IMG/VR virus record: IMGVR_UViG_3300042456_000759
DNA: 64,000 nucleotides
Direction: 5' to 3' (one strand)
Origin: a virus
Taxonomy: Duplodnaviria > Heunggongvirae > Uroviricota > Caudoviricetes
Position 1 is the stretch's first letter. Each line of letters opens with the position of its first letter. The translations under genes and the position numbers were made by a program. The notes below the pieces were generated by a model. The model searched no databases and was not told where the DNA came from. It saw only the letters and a program-made list of their open reading frames with translations. Below, in pieces: positions 3,512-58,476 of the stretch.

Positions 3512-6289
3512 ATGTCTACATATACAAGACCAGATAAATTTATTCCTATTAATATATCAAGTTCTCCTGAGAACTATTTAAACTATGTTCAAAAAAGACT
3601 AGATTTAAGTGCTCAAGGGCAAGCTATGGTCAATATGCAATATAAGCAAATATTAGACTTAGACTTAACACATGATGCTAATAAAGAGAAGTTAAATGGT
3701 TTTTTAAGATCGGTCTCTGAAAAAATAAATAAATATGCAGGTTCTGATTTATCTAATTTTGATAATGTTAAACAAGCTATATCTGTTTTTGATCCTTTAA
3801 CTAAAGATAAACAATATGAATCTATTCTTTATGATAATAAGTTTACTAAACATTATCGAGATCAATTTAATTTAGTAGAAGAGTATAAACAAAAAGCTGA
3901 TAAAAAAGGTGTAATTGGTGCAGGTTATGGAGTTCATAATTATAATGTATTAATGAACTCTTATAATAAGTTTAGAAATTCTAAGAATCCTTCAGATTAT
4001 TCTAATTGGGGAAGTTTAGATACATATCAACCATATTATGATGATAAAGCTGAAGTTCAGAAATTAACTGAAAGTTTTTTAAAATTACCTGACGATTATG
4101 AAATAGAAACGTTAGGTGAAAACGGAATGACTACAAAAGTTAAATTCAAAGGAAAAACTGCTGCTGATATTCAACAATATTTAAATGTAATGTTATCTGA
4201 TAAAGCTAGAAATCAAATGGCTATTGAAGGTAGATCTTATTCTTATCAAATAGATGATGCTACATTTGAAAAAACAATGAAAGATTCTTTAAATAAGAAT
4301 ATTAAGAATATAGATAAAGATATATATGATTTAAAAGTATCAGGTTCTTATAATGGAAAAAAACTAACAAAAGATGAAATAAGTCAAATTAAAAATGAAC
4401 TTGAGTCTCAAAAAGAATCAGCATCTAATAAACTTAATGATTTTAATGATAATATTAAAAGACAAGAAATATTAGCAGATAAAGAAAACATATATGCTAA
4501 TTATTATACTAATGAGAAAATAGCTAATTTATCATCTGCATTAGATAATAAAAGAATGGATCAAACTCTTGGAACTAATCAAGCGTATGTATCTATGTTA
4601 AATAGACAACAAGGTTGGCAAGAGTTTATGTTAGAATTAGAAGCTAAACGTGAATCTGATGCTAAAAAATTAGAATTTGATTATCGTAAAGAAGGTTTAG
4701 ATCCTAAAACAGGAAAACCTATATTAGGATCTCCTTCAAATGAAACAGCTGTTCCAACACCTATTACAGGAACTGTAGAAGAGGTTGTAAAAAATAATGA
4801 AGCGTTTGAAAAAGAGATAAATGATAATATGTCTAAAGTAGCTATTCAAGTTATTGATAATGCTTACGATGCTTTAGGTTTAGATAAAAATGAATCATTT
4901 TTTAATAGAACTCAAAATAATGTAAAGGCTTTACAATATGTTAAGCAAATTTCTGATGAATTAATTTCTAATTCTGGTAGAATTAAAACTTTAATGAGTA
5001 AACCTGAATCTGAATTAACTGCAAAAGAAAAAGCGGATAAAAACATTGTACTTAAATTAAAAGAAAATGAAGCGGATGTTGCTATAGCTAATAGTTATTA
5101 TGATAAAAAAAATAAATTAGTTGATAAAACTCGAGCTGAAATTAAAAAAACTTTTGCAGATGCTGGAATCAAATCTGTACAGGATTTAGAAGGTAATTTG
5201 GTATTACAGGCATATAGTGATTACCCTACTTTAGATAATTTAATAGATGCTATGATTAAAAATCCTGAATTAGCTCAACAAGTTAATCAGAGTTTAAATC
5301 GCACAGATGTATTTTCAGTAGGATCACAAGGTTTAAAAATAGCAGGTAAATCAACAGGAAATCCTATTATTGATTTTATTTCTGGAAATAGTGCAAAAAT
5401 AATAGATGATGTGCTTAAACAGAATTCAGGCAATGTTTCAGCACCTGTAGAAGAGTTACATAAAAATATAGGTCAATCTTTTGCAACTTCTGGTATGCAT
5501 AAAGTTATGAATAGACCTATAGCTACACAAACAAATATTGATAAAACTTTAAATTCTCAATTTAATAATTTTATTAACAATACGATTGTAGCTAAATATG
5601 GAGACATATTAAAAGAAAAAGGTATAGAGCCGTCAATGATTAATTCTATTGAAACTCATGATGGATATTATTTAATAAAAGGTTCTACATCTCAAATAGA
5701 TGAAGAAACTGGTAAAATAATTAAAAAAGGTGAAACATTTGAAGAAAAACTAACTAGTCCTGATTTAACTGTTACTTCAGCTATAGAAAGAAAATATGCT
5801 CAAGCTTTAGGAATGTCTGAAAATGGGAGTCTTAATATGAATTATACCTCAGATTTAAGTTCATATCCTTATAGAGTTAGAACTACATCTGGGACACCTT
5901 ATCAGATGTACTCATCTCAAACTCAACCTTTAACTTTAGAGTTAGAGATTAATGGTAAAGTTGTTCAACTTCCTGCTACATTTAATACAGTAGGTGCTGC
6001 TAAACAACAAATGGAGGAAACTATAAATGCTTTAGAAACAGAAGTTACAAATGAAGTATTTAAAGAAGAATATCAAAAAGCTTTAAAAGAAAGTGGAGAT
6101 ACACAAGAAGCAAAACAGATAGCTTTAAAGAAATTAAATGAGATGTCTAAATCAGAACTTCCTTTAAAAATTAAAGAAAGAATAGAAAAAATGTATCAAA
6201 CAGGTACTATCTTTGATGTCTTTGGATTACAAAATCCTCAATTAACTCGTACTCAACAACAACTACAAGATTTAATCAATGGTAACTAA
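3512..6289 (+). CDS. Virion cargo protein adjacent to vRNAP (925 aa), probable ejection/transcription-associated subunit
   Basis: Large helical, Cys-free ORF overlapping the vRNAP start by 11 nt. Its position matches crAss-like cargo operons. Confidence 0.55.
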   Translation: MSTYTRPDKFIPINISSSPENYLNYVQKRLDLSAQGQAMVNMQYKQILDLDLTHDANKEKLNGFLRSVSEKINKYAGSDLSNFDNVKQAISVFDPLTKDKQYESILYDNKFTKHYRDQFNLVEEYKQKADKKGVIGAGYGVHNYNVLMNSYNKFRNSKNPSDYSNWGSLDTYQPYYDDKAEVQKLTESFLKLPDDYEIETLGENGMTTKVKFKGKTAADIQQYLNVMLSDKARNQMAIEGRSYSYQIDDATFEKTMKDSLNKNIKNIDKDIYDLKVSGSYNGKKLTKDEISQIKNELESQKESASNKLNDFNDNIKRQEILADKENIYANYYTNEKIANLSSALDNKRMDQTLGTNQAYVSMLNRQQGWQEFMLELEAKRESDAKKLEFDYRKEGLDPKTGKPILGSPSNETAVPTPITGTVEEVVKNNEAFEKEINDNMSKVAIQVIDNAYDALGLDKNESFFNRTQNNVKALQYVKQISDELISNSGRIKTLMSKPESELTAKEKADKNIVLKLKENEADVAIANSYYDKKNKLVDKTRAEIKKTFADAGIKSVQDLEGNLVLQAYSDYPTLDNLIDAMIKNPELAQQVNQSLNRTDVFSVGSQGLKIAGKSTGNPIIDFISGNSAKIIDDVLKQNSGNVSAPVEELHKNIGQSFATSGMHKVMNRPIATQTNIDKTLNSQFNNFINNTIVAKYGDILKEKGIEPSMINSIETHDGYYLIKGSTSQIDEETGKIIKKGETFEEKLTSPDLTVTSAIERKYAQALGMSENGSLNMNYTSDLSSYPYRVRTTSGTPYQMYSSQTQPLTLELEINGKVVQLPATFNTVGAAKQQMEETINALETEVTNEVFKEEYQKALKESGDTQEAKQIALKKLNEMSKSELPLKIKERIEKMYQTGTIFDVFGLQNPQLTRTQQQLQDLINGN

Positions 6290-9200
6290 CGAACAATTAA
6301 AACCTACAACAATACCTGGATCATTCAATCCTCAACAAACATTAACAGATGTTTATGTACCAAGTACATTTGAAGATAGATTTGGTGCATTATTAAATAA
6401 CCCTATGCCAAGTAATTTAGGGTTACGAATTCCTATTGATGATTTCAAAACAGAATATGCTGATGGTTCTAAATTTAGAGGATTGTTTCAAAAATCAGGT
6501 GATAAACTAAAACAAGATCCTAATTTTGATCCTATTACTTCGAGAGTAATAACGACACCATTATCTGAAGTAGAACCTTATTTAAAATATGATTCTAATT
6601 ATGATAATAATCTTAATGCTGCTTTTGGCCAAGCTGGTAAAGGTGCTGTTGTTGGAGGTGGAGTAGGTTCGTTTTTCAGTCCAATTGGAACTGCTATAGG
6701 TGCTGGAGTTGGAGGTACGTTAGGATTTTTTTCAGGATTATTAACAACATCAGGAAGAGGAGTATATATTCCAGGAAGGGATAATAGACAAGAAATATTA
6801 GAAAAACAATCAGGTTTTTGGAATACGTTAGGAGGATTTACAAATAACTTTTTAGATAGAAGTTTTGAAGCAGGAATAGGAGGTACAGCTGCATTATTAA
6901 CTTCTCCTTTTGGAGCTATTGCAGGTAGAGAGTTTTACGATTGGGGATCTAACCCATTAACTAGGAAATTAAGTGAATCTTTAGAACAAAGTGAATATAA
7001 ACGTCATTTATCAGATAATTATTTAAATAAAGGACCTATTGCTAAATTTTTTACAGCAGAAGGGTTTCAAAATGAAATAGCTGATATGGCTGGATTTACT
7101 GTAGGAATGATGTTAGGAGCTAAGATAAACATGGGTTTAAACGCAGGTGCTGGACAAGCAGTATCAAAATTAGCTATTGGATTAAAAAATCCAGGTTTAG
7201 CCACTTCTATATCTAATCGAGGAGGAAATTTAATTGGAGATTTTTTACCTACTGTGGCTAAAAGAGCGTCAGCTTTATTTACTAAAGGAAGTACTAAATT
7301 AACAGCAGCTCAACAAGCTGCTACATTTTCAGAATTAAACTTAGTAACATTAGCTAAAAACGCTTTTAAAAAGGGAACATTTGAAGATTATGGTAAAAAT
7401 CTAATTAATGCTTTTAAAAATCCTGCATTTGGTTTAAAAGCTTTATCTAGTTTTGAAAGAACTGCATTGGCTTCATATGGAGAAGGTAGAGTTGAAGCAG
7501 CTCAAGCTTATAAAGACATTTATGACACAGCTTTAAAAAACGGTTATTCTGCTTCAGAATCTGCTGAAATGGCAACTAAAGGAGCTAATAAAACATTATT
7601 GGGTAATTTAGCAATATTAGGTGTTACAAATCAGTTTGGCTTAAATCAATTAACTAATGTATCTAGTATTAAAAATTTAAGTAGATGGTTTTCTAAGGAT
7701 TTTACATTAGATGTAACTACATCTAAAATATTAAAAGAAACATTAAAAGATATTTCAAAGAACGCTACAAAAGGATTTGTTATCGAAGGATTTGGTGAAG
7801 AATTAGGTCAGTTTGCTATATCTCAAGCTGCTAAAAATCAGCAATTAAATATGGCTGATCCTTTAAATCCTATTCATAAAGCTTTCTTTACAGAATTTAT
7901 TGAAGCTTATAAAGATGGTATTTCTTCTGATGAAGGGATGTCTAATTGGTTTGGAGGTGGTTTATTTGGATCAGTTATGGGTGGTTTTGGTCCAGGTGGA
8001 ATAATGTCAACATTAAATGAAGCAAATAAAGCCAAAACTATAAATATTCCTGATAGTTTAAAAACTAAAATTTCTAATTTCAGTTCAGCTATTGATTTTA
8101 TTTCAAAACATACAGTTCCATTTAACGGTCAATTATTTCAATCTTATAGAGAAGAAAACGGTGAATACATCCCAGATAATAATGGAACAGTTAGACTTAT
8201 TAATGATCCTACTCGGTTAATTAAATTAACACAAGCTTTAAATCATATTAATACATTATCTAAAGATCAAGCTAATCTTATTTTAACAAATGTTAAAAAT
8301 AATATTAAAACAGAAGATCCTGCTATGCAGGAAGGTTTTAAAATAATCAAAGATTATGTAGATTTATTTGGAGAAACAGGAGAAAAATCTTTAGAAGAAT
8401 ATATAAATCAAGATTTATCATCTAAAGAAAAGCAAAATACTTTATATTTATTATCTAAATTAGGGGAAACAGTCATTGAAAATGAATATGCTTTAGAATC
8501 AGATTTAAGTAATATAGCTAAATCAATGGTTTCTTCTTCTTATGTATTTGATCATGTAGTCAATGGCATTGAAGATAAGATCTTTGATGAATTAGATGCG
8601 TTAGAGGAATCATTATTAGATCCTACATCTGAGTCAGGACAAAAAGATTTAATAGAATTCTTTGGTAAAAATTATAAACTTGATCAATTAGATCAAGCCA
8701 AAGAAGATATTAAAACATTTAGAGATCAACTTAAAAAACAAGTTAAAATATTTAAAGGTTTAGCAAATAGATATTCTGAACCATTTACTCATATTAATAT
8801 TAAAAAAGATAATAAAGTTCATAAACTGCCTATTACAGTAGATATGTATAGCGTCTTTAGATCAGCTTTAGTTCAAGATGATTTAAATACTATGGTTTCT
8901 GAAATTGATGAAAAGTTAAATGATATTAAATCTGAATTATTAGCAGATCCACAATATTCACAAGATTATTTAAATCCTAATAATACATCAGAAGATGTAT
9001 TAGATATAGCTAAAAAAGAAAACAATAATCCTTTATATCTTCAATATCAAGTATTAGAAAATCTTAAAAAGCAAGTAAGTGATTCTTTACAAAAAGAAAA
9101 TAAAGCATTTGAAGAATTAACAGACGTTAAAAAATTAATTGAAAAAGCTCAAAAGTCAGAAAAAGCTATAAATTCAGAAATTGAAAATCCTGCTAAGTCA

Positions 9201-52808: not shown

Positions 52809-53091
52809 AAATAGTTACAGTTTTAGATATTGGTGTTACATATTTAATACTTTTAATATGTTCATTTTCTCCATAAGAATCGGTTTCTTTAGTAACTTGA
52901 AGATATAAATTTTCTTCATTATTATAATATACAGATGTAAGTATACCATAATCTCCTTGACTCTTTTCATCATAATATCCTGTTGATGTTTCTTCTTCAA
53001 CTAATCCAAACTTAAAAAGTGCTAATCTATTTGTTATAGCACTAGGATTAAGATCTTCTAATATCTTTTCTAAAATCTCTAATTTATTCAT
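52801..53091 (-). CDS. Hypothetical phage protein, paralog 3 of a tandem trio
   Basis: ETDSYGE...YVTPISKTVTIYE. Confidence 0.6.
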   Translation of the reverse strand: MNKLEILEKILEDLNPSAITNRLALFKFGLVEEETSTGYYDEKSQGDYGILTSVYYNNEENLYLQVTKETDSYGENEHIKSIKYVTPISKTVTIYE

Positions 53092-53833
53092 TGTTTAAAA
53101 ATTGTTTATAATTAAAAAAAGGTTTTATTAATTTTGGATAATTAAATATAATAAATATAGCTTCCCATAAAGGAGCATGATTTAAAATAAATTTCTTTAA
53201 CATTATATTATAATTAATCCTATAATCTGGATGGAAACTTCTTTCCATTGCCATAACCATTACTTCTTCCTGAACTAAATTCAGTTTTTCTTCAAAAGAT
53301 AACATATTAAATTTATCTTCACTTACATCTACTTCACTATCATCTTTTAATATTTTACAATATGTTGGAGTTAATTGTCCTTTAAAATGAGAATGTTTTA
53401 TTAACATTTCATGTAAATCATCATGTTTTATTGGATATTTAATAGCATTTGTAAAAAAATCATTAGCAGACATATCTAAATTACTTCGTTTATTCTTTTC
53501 ATGTATTGTATTCCAAAATAAATACAATTCATTAAATAATTCCATATCAAAAAGATAATCATATTTTGACGTAATAATTTTATGAATATCCCACATGTGC
53601 TTATCCCAACCAATATCCCAACCAACTACATGACTAACTTTTAAAGTTAATAAATCATTTAAAGAACATATTTCATCATTTCTTCTTGTAATAATTGGAT
53701 TATATAGATATTCAGTAATACCAATTTTACCTGAATGCTGTTTATCATCAACAGCATAATCTACATCTTTTATAGATCTATTACTTAGACTATAATATTG
53801 AAGGGCTTTACTCCCTATTAATACTTTCTTCAT
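53084..53833 (-). CDS. Pol-beta-like nucleotidyltransferase-fold protein
   Basis: LIGSKAL...KDVDY (GS...DxD), followed by LLTLKVSH...W.KHMWDI. Confidence 0.6.
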   Translation of the reverse strand: MKKVLIGSKALQYYSLSNRSIKDVDYAVDDKQHSGKIGITEYLYNPIITRRNDEICSLNDLLTLKVSHVVGWDIGWDKHMWDIHKIITSKYDYLFDMELFNELYLFWNTIHEKNKRSNLDMSANDFFTNAIKYPIKHDDLHEMLIKHSHFKGQLTPTYCKILKDDSEVDVSEDKFNMLSFEEKLNLVQEEVMVMAMERSFHPDYRINYNIMLKKFILNHAPLWEAIFIIFNYPKLIKPFFNYKQFLNNE

Positions 53834-54173
53834 AATTTTTTATTGTTTCCTCAAAATAGTTAATAATGATATTACTTCTAACAGTTAAATATTCTCTATA
53901 TATCTTTTGATAATTATTCTCAGAACGATATAGAGTATTATCATCTTTATGAAGAATTATATATCCATATTTATTTATTACATCATTTATCTCTGTATAT
54001 TTATCTCCTGATAATTGTTTTAATTCATTTAATACATGTTGCCATATTGAATAATTTGATAATCTTATACTAGTTAAATGGTTTATTAATTGTTCTAATT
54101 CACTTATAAAAGTATTTATATCTCCCTGAAATATATAATAATGATGAATATGACTACGAGTATAAGTTTTCAT
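53808..54173 (-). CDS. Hypothetical protein (121 aa), paralog of 54488..54862
   Basis: Shared YGY...LY...NN...YREY...I pattern. Confidence 0.55.
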   Translation of the reverse strand: MKTYTRSHIHHYYIFQGDINTFISELEQLINHLTSIRLSNYSIWQHVLNELKQLSGDKYTEINDVINKYGYIILHKDDNTLYRSENNYQKIYREYLTVRSNIIINYFEETIKNYEESINRE

Positions 54174-54507
54174 TGTTATTTATTTTTTCAGCTTTTTCAA
54201 ATAATTTATCTAATTTTATAGATATATTTTTATTATTATCATTCATTATATCAGAGACAGTAATAAAATCTGTTATATTACTATTAATTTCTATATAACT
54301 TTCTTTATCTTGTGAAAATATTTTTATATATACTGTCTTATTTTTCAAATTATGATAAATTATATCCTTCCATCCAGATTTAATTTCTCCTATATCATTA
54401 AACCATCCATCATATTCTTTTTGATCTATGAATTCTTTATTAAGAGCGTCTTTTAATATGACTATAATATCTGAAATAAAATTAACTTTATAATAAATTT
54501 GTTTCAT
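54154..54507 (-). CDS. Hypothetical protein (117 aa)
   Basis: ORF track; overlaps neighbours. Confidence 0.5.
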   Translation of the reverse strand: MKQIYYKVNFISDIIVILKDALNKEFIDQKEYDGWFNDIGEIKSGWKDIIYHNLKNKTVYIKIFSQDKESYIEINSNITDFITVSDIMNDNNKNISIKLDKLFEKAEKINNNENLYS

Positions 54508-54862
54508 AAGTTCTTATTATATCTTCTATTTTATTAATAGTTATCTCAGTTCTTTTAAATTTAGATTCTTGATATTCTCTATAAACGTTAGAGAAATTAT
54601 TAGAACTATTATGATAAAGATTATATTTACCATCGTCACGTTGTTCTAATTCAAAAACTAAATAACCATATTCTTTATAACGTGCTTTAAGTGATATATA
54701 TGATATAAGCGGAGAAATTTTATTTTCTTTATCTACCCATGATCCATAATTTATTAAGTTATATAGTTTATGTAAGTTATTAATAAAATTAATTAAATTG
54801 TCTTCATCTATATCTTTTTCAAAAATATAGTATATTTTACCTTTATAAGTATATATTTCCAT
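54488..54862 (-). CDS. Hypothetical protein (124 aa), paralog of 53808..54173
   Basis: YGYLVF...LYHNSSNNFSNVYREY. Confidence 0.55.
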   Translation of the reverse strand: MEIYTYKGKIYYIFEKDIDEDNLINFINNLHKLYNLINYGSWVDKENKISPLISYISLKARYKEYGYLVFELEQRDDGKYNLYHNSSNNFSNVYREYQESKFKRTEITINKIEDIIRTYETNLL

Positions 54863-54880
54863 TATTTAATATTTAAAATA

Positions 54881-54908
54881 AAAAGGTTAGATGTTACTCT
54901 AACCTTTT
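54881..54908. terminator. Intrinsic terminator after VWA exon 2
   Basis: aaaaggttaga-tgttac-tctaacctttt, a perfect 11 bp inverted repeat. Confidence 0.85.
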
Positions 54909-54915
54909 TAAGAAT

Positions 54916-55164
54916 CTAATCATAATTAAATGAGATATAAGAACCTCCTGTATCTTCACATAATGCTTTTAATTGATCATTTGCTTGTGATATAGTTATA
55001 GCATTAGTTTTCCAGTTAACACTAGTTTTTACAGAATCATTCCCATCATTAACTATTAATATTTCAGGACGTTCATGAGAAAGATCTATATTTAAATTAT
55101 ATAGTTTTTTATTATTTACTATTTCCTTTTCAATAGAATTAATAACGTGTCCGACCTGAGTGTC
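54916..55164 (-). CDS. Exon 2 of the intron-split VWA-domain gene (82 aa, DTQVGHV...ILIVNDGND...LCEDTGGSY)
   Basis: Open frame with no start codon of its own. Supplies the MIDAS Thr and the NDG Asp missing from exon 1, and joins in frame after splicing. Confidence 0.85.
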   Translation of the reverse strand, partial: DTQVGHVINSIEKEIVNNKKLYNLNIDLSHERPEILIVNDGNDSVKTSVNWKTNAITISQANDQLKALCEDTGGSYISFNYD

Positions 55165-56305
55165 CGTTAAATTAAAATTTAGTTTTTTTTCTTTCTAAGT
55201 AAATCGTTGCATTTGAATAAATAAAATCTTTAAAGTTTTGTACATCTTTTTTAGATGAAAATCTTAAAGTTCTTGTTGTATTATTCCTATTAGGAAATCG
55301 ACAACTTAATTTTGTTTTATTTAATCCAATTTTATTAATTAATAAATCTTGTAAACAAGTTAAAAACATTTCTGTTCCAACAATTTCTACACATGGATTT
55401 TTTCCATTTTTATACCAAATACAACCATCCCCATCAAAATAACCTCTAATAAAATGATGAATTAAATTATCAGGGACTTGTGTAGGAAATTCAAGAATAA
55501 ATGATTTATTATTTAAACAACCTTTATCAATTAAATGCTTATAAAAATATTTATTAACAATCATTAACGTTTTTAAAACCTTTCTATGAAGAAATTTTTT
55601 AGGAGGTTTGATTGTATAAATAGGTTTATTTGTATTAATAACGTCTTTAAATTTTTCAATTATAGGTAAATCCTCTTCTTGTAAAGTTAAAGTAACAGAA
55701 TTTCTTTTAATAGATACATATCCATCTGCATATAAATAACCTAAATAATAAGCTTTATCTTCCGTATCAATATCTTTAAAATATTGCTCATTTAATGAAT
55801 ATTTTTTCACAAACTGTGTATTATTTACAATTTTTACACCGTTTTCTTTTAATATTCTTGTAATAGGTATATTTGATAATTGAAATTTATCTGCTATTTT
55901 TTTAATACTAAACTTTTTAATTGTATAAAGTTCTATAACTTCTTTGATTTGTTCTTTTGACAGATTTACTTTTTTCATATTATATTATTTGTATAATACA
56001 ATATACGGAAATATAATAATTTAACCAAATTTTAATTTATAATATTCAATATAATTCGTTAAATTATATTCGGAATTAAATCCAGCTTATAGTTTCCTAT
56101 AAGATTAGACTATATCTTCATCCTATACTCTATAGGATGTCTACCTTTTCCATTCACTTGAATGTACTCCCTTGCGGGATAGTCGTTACACCTTCTTATT
56201 TCTAAGCTTGGCTCGGTATTGTCTTCAGCATTATCTGTTAAGAGTTCCACCGAATTAGATAGATTTATTTTTGTATAAATTACTTTATACCGAGGCAACA
56301 CTTTT
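55165..56305 (-). mobile_element. Group I intron (IA2-like), 1141 nt, carrying a homing endonuclease
   Basis: P1: exon GAGGU pairs with IGS GCCUC, with U.G at the splice site. P10: AGUGUU with exon-2 GACACU. P3: UCUAUCU/AGGUAGA. P7: GACUA/UAGUC. P7.1: UCCC-GCAA-GGGA. P7.2: CAUUC/GAAUG. P8: CAUCCUAUA/UAUAGGAUG. P9: CUUAUAG-GAAA-CUAUAAG. Terminal G at 55165. Confidence 0.92.
55172..55978 (-). CDS. Intron-encoded LAGLIDADG homing endonuclease (two-motif type) with N-terminal HTH
   Basis: YYLGYLYADGYV and HFIRGYFDGDGCI; N-terminal SIKKIADKFQLS HTH-like segment. Confidence 0.9.
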   Translation of the reverse strand: MKKVNLSKEQIKEVIELYTIKKFSIKKIADKFQLSNIPITRILKENGVKIVNNTQFVKKYSLNEQYFKDIDTEDKAYYLGYLYADGYVSIKRNSVTLTLQEEDLPIIEKFKDVINTNKPIYTIKPPKKFLHRKVLKTLMIVNKYFYKHLIDKGCLNNKSFILEFPTQVPDNLIHHFIRGYFDGDGCIWYKNGKNPCVEIVGTEMFLTCLQDLLINKIGLNKTKLSCRFPNRNNTTRTLRFSSKKDVQNFKDFIYSNATIYLERKKTKF

Positions 56306-57298
56306 ACCTCCACCAGGATTAAAATTAAATGTTTTCCAAAATTCTAATGCAGATTGTTCATCATAAATATGTGTAAATTTATAGGATTTTATAGTTCCTT
56401 CAGTTAAAAACATACTTATAAATACTTCACACTCTTTAATCATAGCATATTGTAATCTATTAGCTACAATAGCATAAACCCATTCTTTTTTAAAATTCTC
56501 ATTCATTGATCCACTGTCGTCAATAAGGATAATAATCTTTTGTTTTTTAGTTTCAGGTTTAACAGGAACATTAGTAATTAACGTTTTCTGAGCTAATCTA
56601 ATATCATAATCAGGTAACATTCTTTGATATAATGGACTTCTCATAATATCTTCAAAATGGGTTAATCGTTTCTGTTTAGTTTTAGGAGCATTTTGTACTC
56701 TTTTATCTGTAACTTTCTTTTTAACTTCAAAAGATTTACCAAAACTTTCTACTTTAGCTATACGTCTAAGAAAATCTACATTTTTTTTAAAAGTATTAAT
56801 ATCTTTTCTATTTTCTTTTAATTTTTGTAAATTAGGGTTTTCCCATTCTCCTTTTCCTGGTAGATTATCTCTCATTTCTTGCATGAAATCATCTTGAGTA
56901 GAAGGTTCTGCTCCTTCCATAAAACTTTCTGGATCTTGTTGACCAGCTATTTCTTTCATATATTGCAATAAAAAGAGAGCTTTATCTATGAATGTATAAC
57001 CTGGAATATATTCATTATATAAACCTTCATAAAAATTTGTTTTTTTAGCTAATTTTTCTTGTTGTTGCTCATTAAATTTACTCATGTCTTTAAAACTATC
57101 ATCAATATAGTCTTTATTCCACATCATTTGATGAGAAAAAAATCTAGTTAGTTCCTGAAAAAATTCAGGTCTAACATAATTCATCTTATTATTTTGTAAG
57201 ATAGAAGTACTATACCCCAAAGTAGGAGTATAGTACCATTCATTATCTTTAATAAATAAGGGTTTTTCTGCTTTTTCCTTAAAATTAAACCAATTCAT
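56306..57298 (-). CDS. Exon 1 of the VWA-domain protein (331 codons; spliced product 413 aa)
   Basis: IIILIDDSGSM (MIDAS DxSxS); ends FNPGGG at the 5' splice site; directly downstream of a MoxR-like AAA gene. Confidence 0.85.
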
Positions 57299-58476
57299 TA
57301 TTTTTTATTTAATTGATCGAGTCCTGTTAATTTTTGCAACTCATTCATATTTTTCTCTAAAATTTGATTCCATTTCTCATCTAACATTGTTACTTTCTTC
57401 ATTAATTCATCATCAGTTTTAGTTTTAGATAACTCTTCTTTAGATCTTTTAATTGTTTGTAACGCTTCTTTAAATACTGGTAAATTAATAGTTTGGAATC
57501 CACCAGAAAAATCAATAGTATTAATTTGTTTAATAGCCTCATCAACTTTATCTGTTAATTCATCAATTCGAGCTACAGATTTATATTTTTTAATACTTTC
57601 TTGAACTACAGATTTTGCTCTTTCAGAAGTAAATTCTGCAACATAAGACATATAATCTGTTCCTGCTTCTTCCATTCCTAATAATACTTTTACAGCAGTT
57701 CTTGGTGAAACAATAAGTTTATCTTTAGCCAATTCTCCTAAAATATATGCTAAAGTTTTATTACTTTTTCCAAAACATTCTTTAAACATATGAGAATAGT
57801 TTTCTGCATTATAAGCAGGCCATTCTACTTTAACTTCCATTACAAAACGTTCCATTAAAGCTTTTAAAGATGCATTATCTGTAGCAAAATCTGCACGAGA
57901 TTTATTAGTACAAATAACAATCATTTTAGTTTTTAAAGGATGACGTTGTGTACCATTTCTAAATTCTTTAGAAGTCAATATATCTTTTAATGCTTCTAAA
58001 ACAAAATCTGGAGCATCTAAAGCTTCTTCAAATACTACATATTCCTCATTCATAAATGAATTTTCAATTAAATATTCGATTGCTCCTGGCTTTTTTATAT
58101 AAATAGGTTGCACATCATTAATATCTAATCCTGCTTCTAACGCAGCTTTCTTAGCTTCTGCTGTAGCTTTATGATCAATAATACCATGACTAAATAAACC
58201 TAAATCTACACCACCTAATAGAGCATCAATAGTAGTACCACTACCTAAAGATTTTACATAAGGGTTAATGCCTAAATCTTTGAAATATTTATTAACTATT
58301 TCAGATTTACCAAATCCACCCATTCCCCATAAAATAATATTTTCTCCTGATTTACGAGCTAATTCAAGTCCTTTAAATACATGATCTGCATATACAAATT
58401 TAGAAGGGACGTGTTTTGTTTTAATTTCTTGTTGAATACCTTGTTCCATACTTGGGATTTCATTAATTGTTGCCAT
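57298..58476 (-). CDS. MoxR/RavA-like AAA+ ATPase
   Basis: ILWGMGGFGKS (Walker A), VVFEE (Walker B), ICTN (sensor I), ALMERF (Arg finger), SPRT (sensor II). Confidence 0.8.
   Translation of the reverse strand: MATINEIPSMEQGIQQEIKTKHVPSKFVYADHVFKGLELARKSGENIILWGMGGFGKSEIVNKYFKDLGINPYVKSLGSGTTIDALLGGVDLGLFSHGIIDHKATAEAKKAALEAGLDINDVQPIYIKKPGAIEYLIENSFMNEEYVVFEEALDAPDFVLEALKDILTSKEFRNGTQRHPLKTKMIVICTNKSRADFATDNASLKALMERFVMEVKVEWPAYNAENYSHMFKECFGKSNKTLAYILGELAKDKLIVSPRTAVKVLLGMEEAGTDYMSYVAEFTSERAKSVVQESIKKYKSVARIDELTDKVDEAIKQINTIDFSGGFQTINLPVFKEALQTIKRSKEELSKTKTDDELMKKVTMLDEKWNQILEKNMNELQKLTGLDQLNKK

Follow-up and report, generated by a model that had tools for sequence, protein, structure and literature searches.

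The 64,000-nucleotide stretch of DNA studied here (the window; IMG/VR virus record IMGVR_UViG_3300042456_000759, class Caudoviricetes) contains a gene for a protein with a von Willebrand factor A (VWA) domain whose open reading frame (ORF) stops beside the threonine of its metal ion-dependent adhesion site (MIDAS), the rest of the domain being encoded more than a kilobase further on in the same direction. The locus thus raises the question of what divides this gene and how a complete protein could be made from it. We suggest, with a probability of about 0.9, that the gene, which encodes the VWA/MIDAS partner of a MoxR-type ATPase in a lake phage, is interrupted by a mobile, self-splicing group I intron of the phage-type subgroup IA, both splicing and homing being predicted from sequence. 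An earlier note on this DNA, made without database searches, had proposed a group IA2 intron at this place, and each feature on its list is present in the letters where the note put it. The elements that define the interruption are the following (a slash in a sequence marks a splice or insertion point).

56306..57298, minus strand: VWA exon 1, 331 codons, ending ...NPGGG, with the DDSGS motif inside (ORF listing)
55165..56305, minus strand: group I intron, 1141 nt, subgroup IA type, first base A56305, omega-G 55165 (Rfam model RF00028, covariance model R1 and the intron-less allele)
56292..56301, minus strand: internal guide sequence (sequence and guide search)
56285..56287, minus strand: in-frame UAA stop, intron nt 19-21, ending the unspliced translation after KSVASV
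54916..55164, minus strand: VWA exon 2, 82 codons plus stop, beginning DTQVG and containing the MIDAS Thr and NDGND (translation)

The last codons of exon 1 are CCU GGU GGA GGU, with U56306 as the final base, and exon 2 opens with GAC ACU CAG at 55164, which places the junction one residue before the MIDAS threonine; the intron itself ends in ...UUUAACG. Near its 5′ end, intron nt 10-14 (GCCUC) pair with GAGGU of exon 1 (56310-56306) to form P1, with a U.G pair at the splice site; P10 forms between nt 5-9 (GUGUU) and GACAC of exon 2 (55164-55160), the GCCUC at nt 10 being the only 5-bp guide candidate that a guide search returned near the 5′ end of the intron. The earlier note had fixed the junction at 56306/55164 from these two helices, and an uninterrupted allele reads straight through it. 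This allele, the 412-residue protein P0001 (89% identical), reads ...FNFNPGGGDTKVGYV... across the predicted join, as ...FNFNPGGG/DTKVGYVIN..., with a C-terminus almost identical to exon 2, and the DNA that encodes it (L002) has CCTGGTGGAGGT GACACA at the junction, that is, PGGG/DT. Exon 1 is 89% identical to residues 1-330 of P0001 and exon 2 is 84% identical to its C-terminus, so that the comparison with intron-less alleles which the note had recommended matches the predicted ligated exons. Homologous introns inserted at the same point, which we call site B, changed in step with their exons: in L001 the P10 strands are GAUAC in the exon and GUAUU in the guide, and in L015 the P1 strands are GUGGU in the exon and GCCAC in the guide, P10 being the same as in the window. 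Because of these compensatory changes, both P1 and P10 are supported by covariation.

Read without splicing, the ORF at 56285..57298 (minus strand) encodes 337 residues, ends in ...NPGGGKSVASV and lacks the MIDAS Thr and Asp, the two ligands whose loss had been noted before; read with splicing, 331 and 82 residues join into the expected 413-residue protein, with DDSGS from exon 1 and T and NDG from exon 2. Exon 2 has no in-frame ATG, GTG or TTG start, and no ORF of at least 40 residues is listed in its frame; splicing is therefore needed for its translation. The interrupted arrangement recurs in nature, as contigs from independent lake runs span both intron junctions with 0 differences, a 22-kb IMG/VR fragment carries the same intron, and intron DNA is present in at least 17 lake-water metagenome runs (half or more of the sampled words). 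An intron-less joint of the gene was not seen in the contigs of four lake runs. One candidate joint in the lake contigs, from 56023 to 56813 (side 20, 85% likeness), was set aside as most likely belonging to another organism or a repeat.

The catalytic part of the intron was located with covariance models and divides into the helices listed here.

56290-56273, minus strand: P2 hairpin (cmscan versus RF00028)
56263-56257, minus strand: P3, 5′ strand (cmscan versus RF00028)
56253-56190, minus strand: P4-P5-P6 domain (cmscan versus RF00028)
56108..56184, minus strand: catalytic centre, made up of the next five entries
56184-56180 with 56112-56108, minus strand: P7 (cmscan)
56179-56168, minus strand: P7.1 (cmscan)
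56164-56151, minus strand: P7.2 (cmscan)
56146-56140, minus strand: P3, 3′ strand (cmscan)
56139-56119, minus strand: P8 (cmscan)
56103-56086, minus strand: P9, with a GAAA loop (covariation counts)
56083-56072, minus strand: P9.1 (covariation counts)
56070-56048, minus strand: P9.2, with a conserved UAACG loop (covariation counts)

When positions 54900-56450 were given alone to cmscan, RF00028 covered 56315..56086 on the minus strand over its full length (model positions 1-253) with 95.9 bits and an E-value of 4.2e-25, against a gathering score of 50 bits. The complete ribozyme core read from the letters was thus borne out, and the search with an Infernal group I model that had been suggested as a check is positive on this 1.5-kb region. 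Rfam reported no intron when given all 64 kb of the window, with either the gathering or an E-value threshold; since RF00028 does reach 95.9 bits on the short region, we take these blanks to be filter losses, a speed-filter artefact in AT-rich DNA, and a blank from the whole window is therefore no proof that an intron is absent. A covariance model built from our intron alignment (R1), run unfiltered over the whole window, found a single copy with 149.8 bits and no further intron of this lineage, the remaining matches scoring at most 13.5 bits (E > 0.2); it also found 4 copies in relatives beyond its training set.

Covariation among the copies was counted on the half from P7 to P9.2 in seven introns, using an explicit 37-pair structure (P7, P7.1, P7.2, P8, P9, P9.1 and P9.2). 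Paired bases fill 95% of the cells, compared with 32-42% when the partners are slid by 1-3 columns, and two-sided changes preserve 25 of the 37 pairs, values reached by 0 of 500 shuffles. Within this set every cell of P7, P7.1 and P7.2 is paired (100%), compensatory changes included, and P8 reaches 94%. P9, P9.1 and P9.2 are kept in all 11 intron copies. A consensus fold of longer segments by RNAalifold has 40 pairs, 22 of which are compensatory, with P2 among them; P3 to P6 are seen only in the cmscan alignment. Judged by these aligned copies, the ribozyme is under selection.

P7.1 (UCCC/GGGA, here the two strands) and P7.2 (CAUUC/GAAUG) both lie within a 31-nt insertion between P7 and the 3′ strand of P3 in the cmscan alignment, and their presence there assigns the intron to subgroup IA. 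That much of the proposed IA2 class stands; the narrower assignment to IA2 over IA1 or IA3 is tentative, being consistent with the nearest annotated ribozyme relatives, which are introns of Staphylococcus Twort/K-like phages, followed by those of T4-like and Bacillus phages. IA2 is the traditional subgroup of phage introns and is heterogeneous (PMC11878797). As a separate observation, lake contigs with unrelated G+C-rich flanks match the core at 56086-56247 (56148-56195 and 56205-56247) with 85-90% identity; they presumably come from group I introns that other inhabitants of these lakes carry.

The interrupted gene and its upstream neighbour form a pair.

57298..58476, minus strand: MoxR-type AAA+ ATPase, 392 residues, directly upstream, its stop overlapping the VWA start codon

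In Pfam searches the ATPase matches bpMoxR (PF20030) with 49.8 bits (cut-off 27) and AAA_5 with 27.9 bits, and the same MoxR/VWA gene pair is found in L001, L011, L013, L014 and L015. An exhaustive search for the VWA family returned 310 representatives at E ≤ 0.001. No variation is seen among 113 uninterrupted relatives at D259, S261, S263, M264, D370 and D373, and very little at G262, G330, T332 (kept in at least 90%) and G371. The family profile matches the VWA domain of CLCA1 in a search of PDB profiles (E 2e-5), and the AlphaFold2 model of P0001 is of high confidence (predicted local distance difference test (pLDDT) 94.8, predicted template modelling score 0.89). When this model was compared with the PDB by Foldseek, the top 50 matches shown were all VWA-domain structures or complexes with VWA subunits, at a probability of 1.00, and the matches include TFIIH p44, the MDN1 MIDAS domain, ArnB, BatB, CLCA1 and the A domains of von Willebrand factor. 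The predicted structure confirms for the host protein a VWA fold with a MIDAS (DxSxS, T, D), and the protein is a divergent VWA subfamily. The note's description of the gene as a MoxR-partner VWA gene accordingly agrees with the bpMoxR neighbour, the fold and the invariant MIDAS residues. Residues 1-230 of P0001 (window 56609-57298) are also confidently folded (pLDDT > 90), largely helical with few short strands, and no Pfam family was found for them.

The 3′ part of the intron contains a coding sequence and a possible long-range pairing.

55172..55978, minus strand: homing endonuclease ORF, 268 residues, inside the intron, 3′ of the ribozyme (after P9.2)
56023..56039 (intron nt 267-283) with 55184-55168 (nt 1122-1138), minus strand: candidate 17-bp long-range helix (RNAduplex)

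The 268-residue product matches LAGLIDADG_3 (PF14528) with 43.5 bits against a cut-off of 22.5, in two stretches, and PHROG 4645, annotated as 'endonuclease', with an E-value of 7e-60. Its translation has two LAGLIDADG motifs, ..LGYLYADGY.. and ..IRGYFDGDGC.., with the acidic residues kept, as well as a helix-turn-helix-like N-terminus, and its identity to the enzymes encoded by other site-B introns is 52-58%. In relatives whose introns have no ORF, 10-15 nt separate P9.2 from the 3′ splice site. The candidate helix of the window (-14.9 kcal/mol by RNAduplex, with 1.8% of shuffles as good) would loop out the endonuclease ORF and so leave the 3′ splice site, ACG/, close after P9.2; an analogous long-range pairing in L001 is reached by 3.8% of shuffles.

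A plausible course of events, then, is that the gene would be transcribed as a single pre-mRNA, the first ~259 bases of the intron folding into the ribozyme from P1 to P9.2. Free guanosine would attack after U56306, held as a U.G wobble in P1, and the freed end of exon 1 would then attack after G55165, aligned by P10 and probably also by the long-range helix. The exons would thereby join as ...GGU/GAC... and yield the 413-residue protein with its complete metal site (DxSxS, T, D). During co-infection, the LAGLIDADG enzyme would be expected to cut the intron-less junction GGAGGT/GACAC of another phage, whereupon repair would copy the intron in (homing).

Further comparison across the VWA family showed that interruption at MIDAS motifs is not confined to the window. 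The ORF ends and starts of the 153 best family members were mapped onto the positions of P0001; 116 of these 153 are unbroken across the MIDAS region and about a quarter are broken, the breaks clustering at three positions: site A (DDSG/SM), site B (GGG/DT) and site C (NDG..D). Site A (262-266) has 9 ends together with 8 starts at M264, site B lies at 330/331, and site C (371/372) has 11 ends. Infernal and DNA comparison confirm introns at all three, occupied as follows.

Window and L004: A empty; B intron with endonuclease; C empty
L002: A empty; B empty; C empty
L011: A intron with endonuclease (70.8 bits); B empty; C empty
L001: A empty; B intron with endonuclease (100.3 bits); C intron without ORF (41.3 bits)
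L010: A intron (46.5 bits); B empty; C intron (66.9 bits)
L009: A intron (partial core); B 5′ splice site followed immediately by an endonuclease ORF, no core being seen up to the end of the contig; C outside the contig
L013: A intron without ORF; B empty; C empty
L014: A intron with endonuclease; B empty; C gap with a weak model match (28.3 bits)
L015: A intron without ORF (52.8 bits); B intron without ORF (80.7 bits); C empty

The insertion points, which follow D259 (L015), G262, G330, G371 (L010) and D373 (L001 and L014), all fall within the DxSxS, GGG-T and DG-D motifs, and a GGU glycine codon precedes most of them. At site B, the protein P0003 of the 148-kb contig L001 (45% identical) stops in ...CGGKRIASV, and the same-site intron there also has a LAGLIDADG ORF of 268 residues. 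At site A, L013 and L014 have an identical exon-1 protein, the intron of L014 containing an endonuclease ORF and that of L013 none. The ORF-less introns at site C in L001 (8351-8704) and L014 (5276-5580) follow GAU (Asp373), and that of L010 follows GGU (Gly371), 6 nt earlier; a guide search found no P1 guide longer than 3 bp for the site-C introns of L001, L010 and L014, whose junctions are placed by protein alignment and the terminal G only. Given that about a quarter of the best family members are broken at MIDAS sites, the claim that such a gene is an unusual intron host holds for the literature, in which no report was found, and is weaker within the family itself.

The empty site A of the window (56516-56533) reads ...GACAGTGGA TCA..., with GGA as its glycine codon where L011 and L002 have GGT; because the site-A intron needs a U before its splice site, this GGA might make the window allele refractory to it. 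Just downstream of the VWA gene in L013 (4715-5557) there is a 280-residue LAGLIDADG ORF that abuts a helicase gene (5550-6650) and shares 51% identity with the partial endonuclease at site B of L009. This ORF either stands alone or belongs to a further intron.

The closest relatives differ in which sites are occupied and tell something of the history of these insertions. The coding DNA of L002, with no intron, and of L011, with an intron at site A, is 99.4% identical, and the window is 89% identical to both; a difference in intron presence between such near-identical strains points to recent gain or loss. The site-B ribozyme of the window is ~91-92% identical to the site-A ribozyme of L011, matching the level of likeness between the two host genes (89%), and 79% identical to the site-B ribozyme of L001, and the ribozyme of L011 is 59-69% identical to other site-A ribozymes. 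The guide of L011 fits its own site, forming a contiguous 9-bp P1 (GGU/UGUUAA with UUAGUAGCC). The endonucleases group by site instead, with 51-58% identity within B, 42-52% within A and 33-40% across sites; those of the window and L011 are 36% identical and lie on opposite sides of the ribozyme, the ORF of L011 being in the P1 loop and that of the window after P9.2. From this opposite grouping it follows that ribozymes and endonucleases have had separate histories and that one ribozyme lineage changed its site within the gene. It is well accepted that an intron and its endonuclease evolve as distinct modules, and these strains are a clean case of it in nature. The wider proposition, that the three MIDAS motifs form a family-wide set of at least five insertion points among which one ribozyme lineage moves independently of its endonuclease, we hold to be evenly balanced between true and false. 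If it is true, L002, L011 and the window offer near-isogenic strains in which reverse splicing into ...GGU could be tested against recombination with endonuclease cassettes.

Several observations weigh against the mobile, self-splicing intron as we describe it. The Pfam models VWA_2, VWA_3, VWA_CoxE and vWA-TerF-like match four family members over the full profile length with 12-21 bits, all below their curated cut-offs of 26-29 bits, and because of these scores we base the VWA identity on fold, profile and motifs. The endonuclease found no match among PDB sequences, and thus has no solved relative by sequence, its activity and target being predicted ones. The ribozyme core is followed by ~880 nt before the 3′ splice site is reached, and the long-range helix that would bridge this distance has marginal statistical support. 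Finally, no RNA runs carrying the region or the intron are listed, so that splicing in vivo is likewise a prediction.

The alternative that survives best is an intron that splices but is immobile, its endonuclease inactive or its target lost, and that is inherited only vertically. Such an intron would fit the contigs of four lake runs, in which the intron-less joint does not appear, and an endonuclease without a close characterised relative, but its 268-residue ORF is intact, retains both motifs and has kept 52-58% identity to the other site-B enzymes, and the recent gain or loss indicated by near-identical strains argues for mobility; we consider this alternative unlikely. A decayed, non-splicing relic in a VWA pseudogene would sit well with the missing RNA runs and the remote 3′ splice site, but the core helices are all intact in a full-length match of 95.9 bits, P1 and P10 are perfect 5-bp helices, both exons are open, 84-89% identical to the uninterrupted allele and in possession of all MIDAS residues, and many lake samples contain this interrupted allele without change, so that we rejected this very improbable reading on the strength of the intact ribozyme and exons. 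A gene in pieces, in which each half would be made as its own polypeptide and the two would come together as protein, the RNA being left unspliced, has phage precedents that arose by homing endonuclease insertion, such as Aeh1 nrdA (PMC3045599), but it was likewise rejected and is hardly credible here, with an exon 2 that has no in-frame ATG, GTG or TTG start and no called ORF, and with a complete ribozyme whose guides pair with both exons.

The mobile group I intron, which we prefer, has consequences for annotation. Where the intron is not recognised, the gene appears as a truncated 337-residue ORF and an orphan fragment, and, since standard whole-contig Rfam scans miss this 96-bit intron, AT-rich phage genomes probably contain more group I introns than are counted. 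It also adds a family that is neither replicative nor structural, the MoxR-partner VWA proteins, to the hosts of phage group I introns. With all three MIDAS motifs targeted, the family illustrates very clearly the textbook rule by which homing elements occupy the codons under greatest constraint, and close strains with no intron, a site-A intron or a site-B intron, together with their shuffled modules, provide material on how introns form and change sites. The earlier note had further argued that retention of a functional intron implies that the gene matters to the phage. This logic is weak, as selfish introns are maintained by their position in constrained sites (PMC2814812); the importance of the gene is better shown by MIDAS residues that do not vary in 113 relatives.

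As to the surroundings, four small ORFs (124, 117, 121 and 249 residues) lie downstream of the VWA gene at window 53084-54862, and no family could be assigned to them. Homologues of the 249-residue ORF in L001 and L011 carry Pfam DUF7275, and the gene order is the same in both. Elsewhere the window encodes giant ORFs, a PDDEXK nuclease, a DnaG primase, a ribonucleotide reductase and RecA, a content that would suit a distant crAss-like phage. Searches of GenBank phage records gave no match to the region by megablast or to exon 1 or the ATPase by tblastn, and the literature searched yielded no report of an intron within a VWA gene.

How the intron compares with known systems can now be considered. 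It is of a known type, a group I intron that encodes a LAGLIDADG enzyme, and not a new kind of element, although its host gene is unreported in the literature found; what lifts the case slightly above routine is the combination of hot spots at three motifs with the shuffling of ribozymes and endonucleases among near-identical strains. Phage introns occur mostly in polymerase, terminase, thymidylate synthase and ribonucleotide reductase genes (PMC11878797), which backs the earlier statement that nucleotide-metabolism, polymerase and terminase genes are their usual hosts. The introns of Twort-like phages and Kayvirus are the nearest annotated relatives of the ribozyme, with 74-77% identity over ~200 nt and a shared IA core with P7.1 and P7.2. 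In the Twort tail tube gene orf142 there are three introns (Landthaler and Shub 1999, as cited in PMC11878797), a precedent for several group I introns in one gene such as we see in the VWA relatives L001, L010, L014 and L015; the nrdE gene of the Bacillus cereus group similarly has three intron sites (PMC2248736). The window differs from the Twort and Kayvirus cases in that its host gene is a MoxR-partner VWA gene and not a structural, lysin, polymerase or ribonucleotide reductase gene, that it comes from an uncultured lake phage, and that its endonuclease ORF follows the ribozyme.

In its layout, with a 5′ core, a remote 3′ splice site and a predicted 17-bp helix, the intron of the window resembles the IA2 intron of T4 nrdD (sunY), which reportedly has a compact core at its 5′ end, a long ORF and a remote 3′ splice site, and in which a long-range pairing with the 3′-terminal segment is said to have been proposed to activate correct splicing; its endonuclease family (LAGLIDADG) and its host gene are different. 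The crAss-like phages have many endonuclease-bearing group I introns, also in 'ATP_43b', an AAA ATPase gene from the replication block (Yutin et al. 2021; PMC7886860), and like the window these are uncultured phages with introns in conserved genes; they are gut phages, whereas the window is from lake water, and their description makes no mention of a VWA gene or of MIDAS-motif sites. The host gene pair itself recalls NorQ/NorD, a MoxR AAA+ ATPase and its VWA partner (PMC9976466), in that genes for a MoxR-type ATPase and for a VWA protein with a full MIDAS lie side by side, their products being presumed partners. It differs from that pair in being encoded by a phage and in its VWA protein, which has a mostly helical N-terminal region of ~230 residues and falls below the Pfam VWA cut-offs. 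Group I introns and inteins generally occupy conserved, functionally critical sites (Swithers et al. 2009; PMC2814812), and insertion at invariant MIDAS motifs is the behaviour expected of homing elements under this rule; compared with the cases on which the rule was built, the VWA proteins are a new family, and one in which a single ribozyme lineage is found at different sites in close strains.

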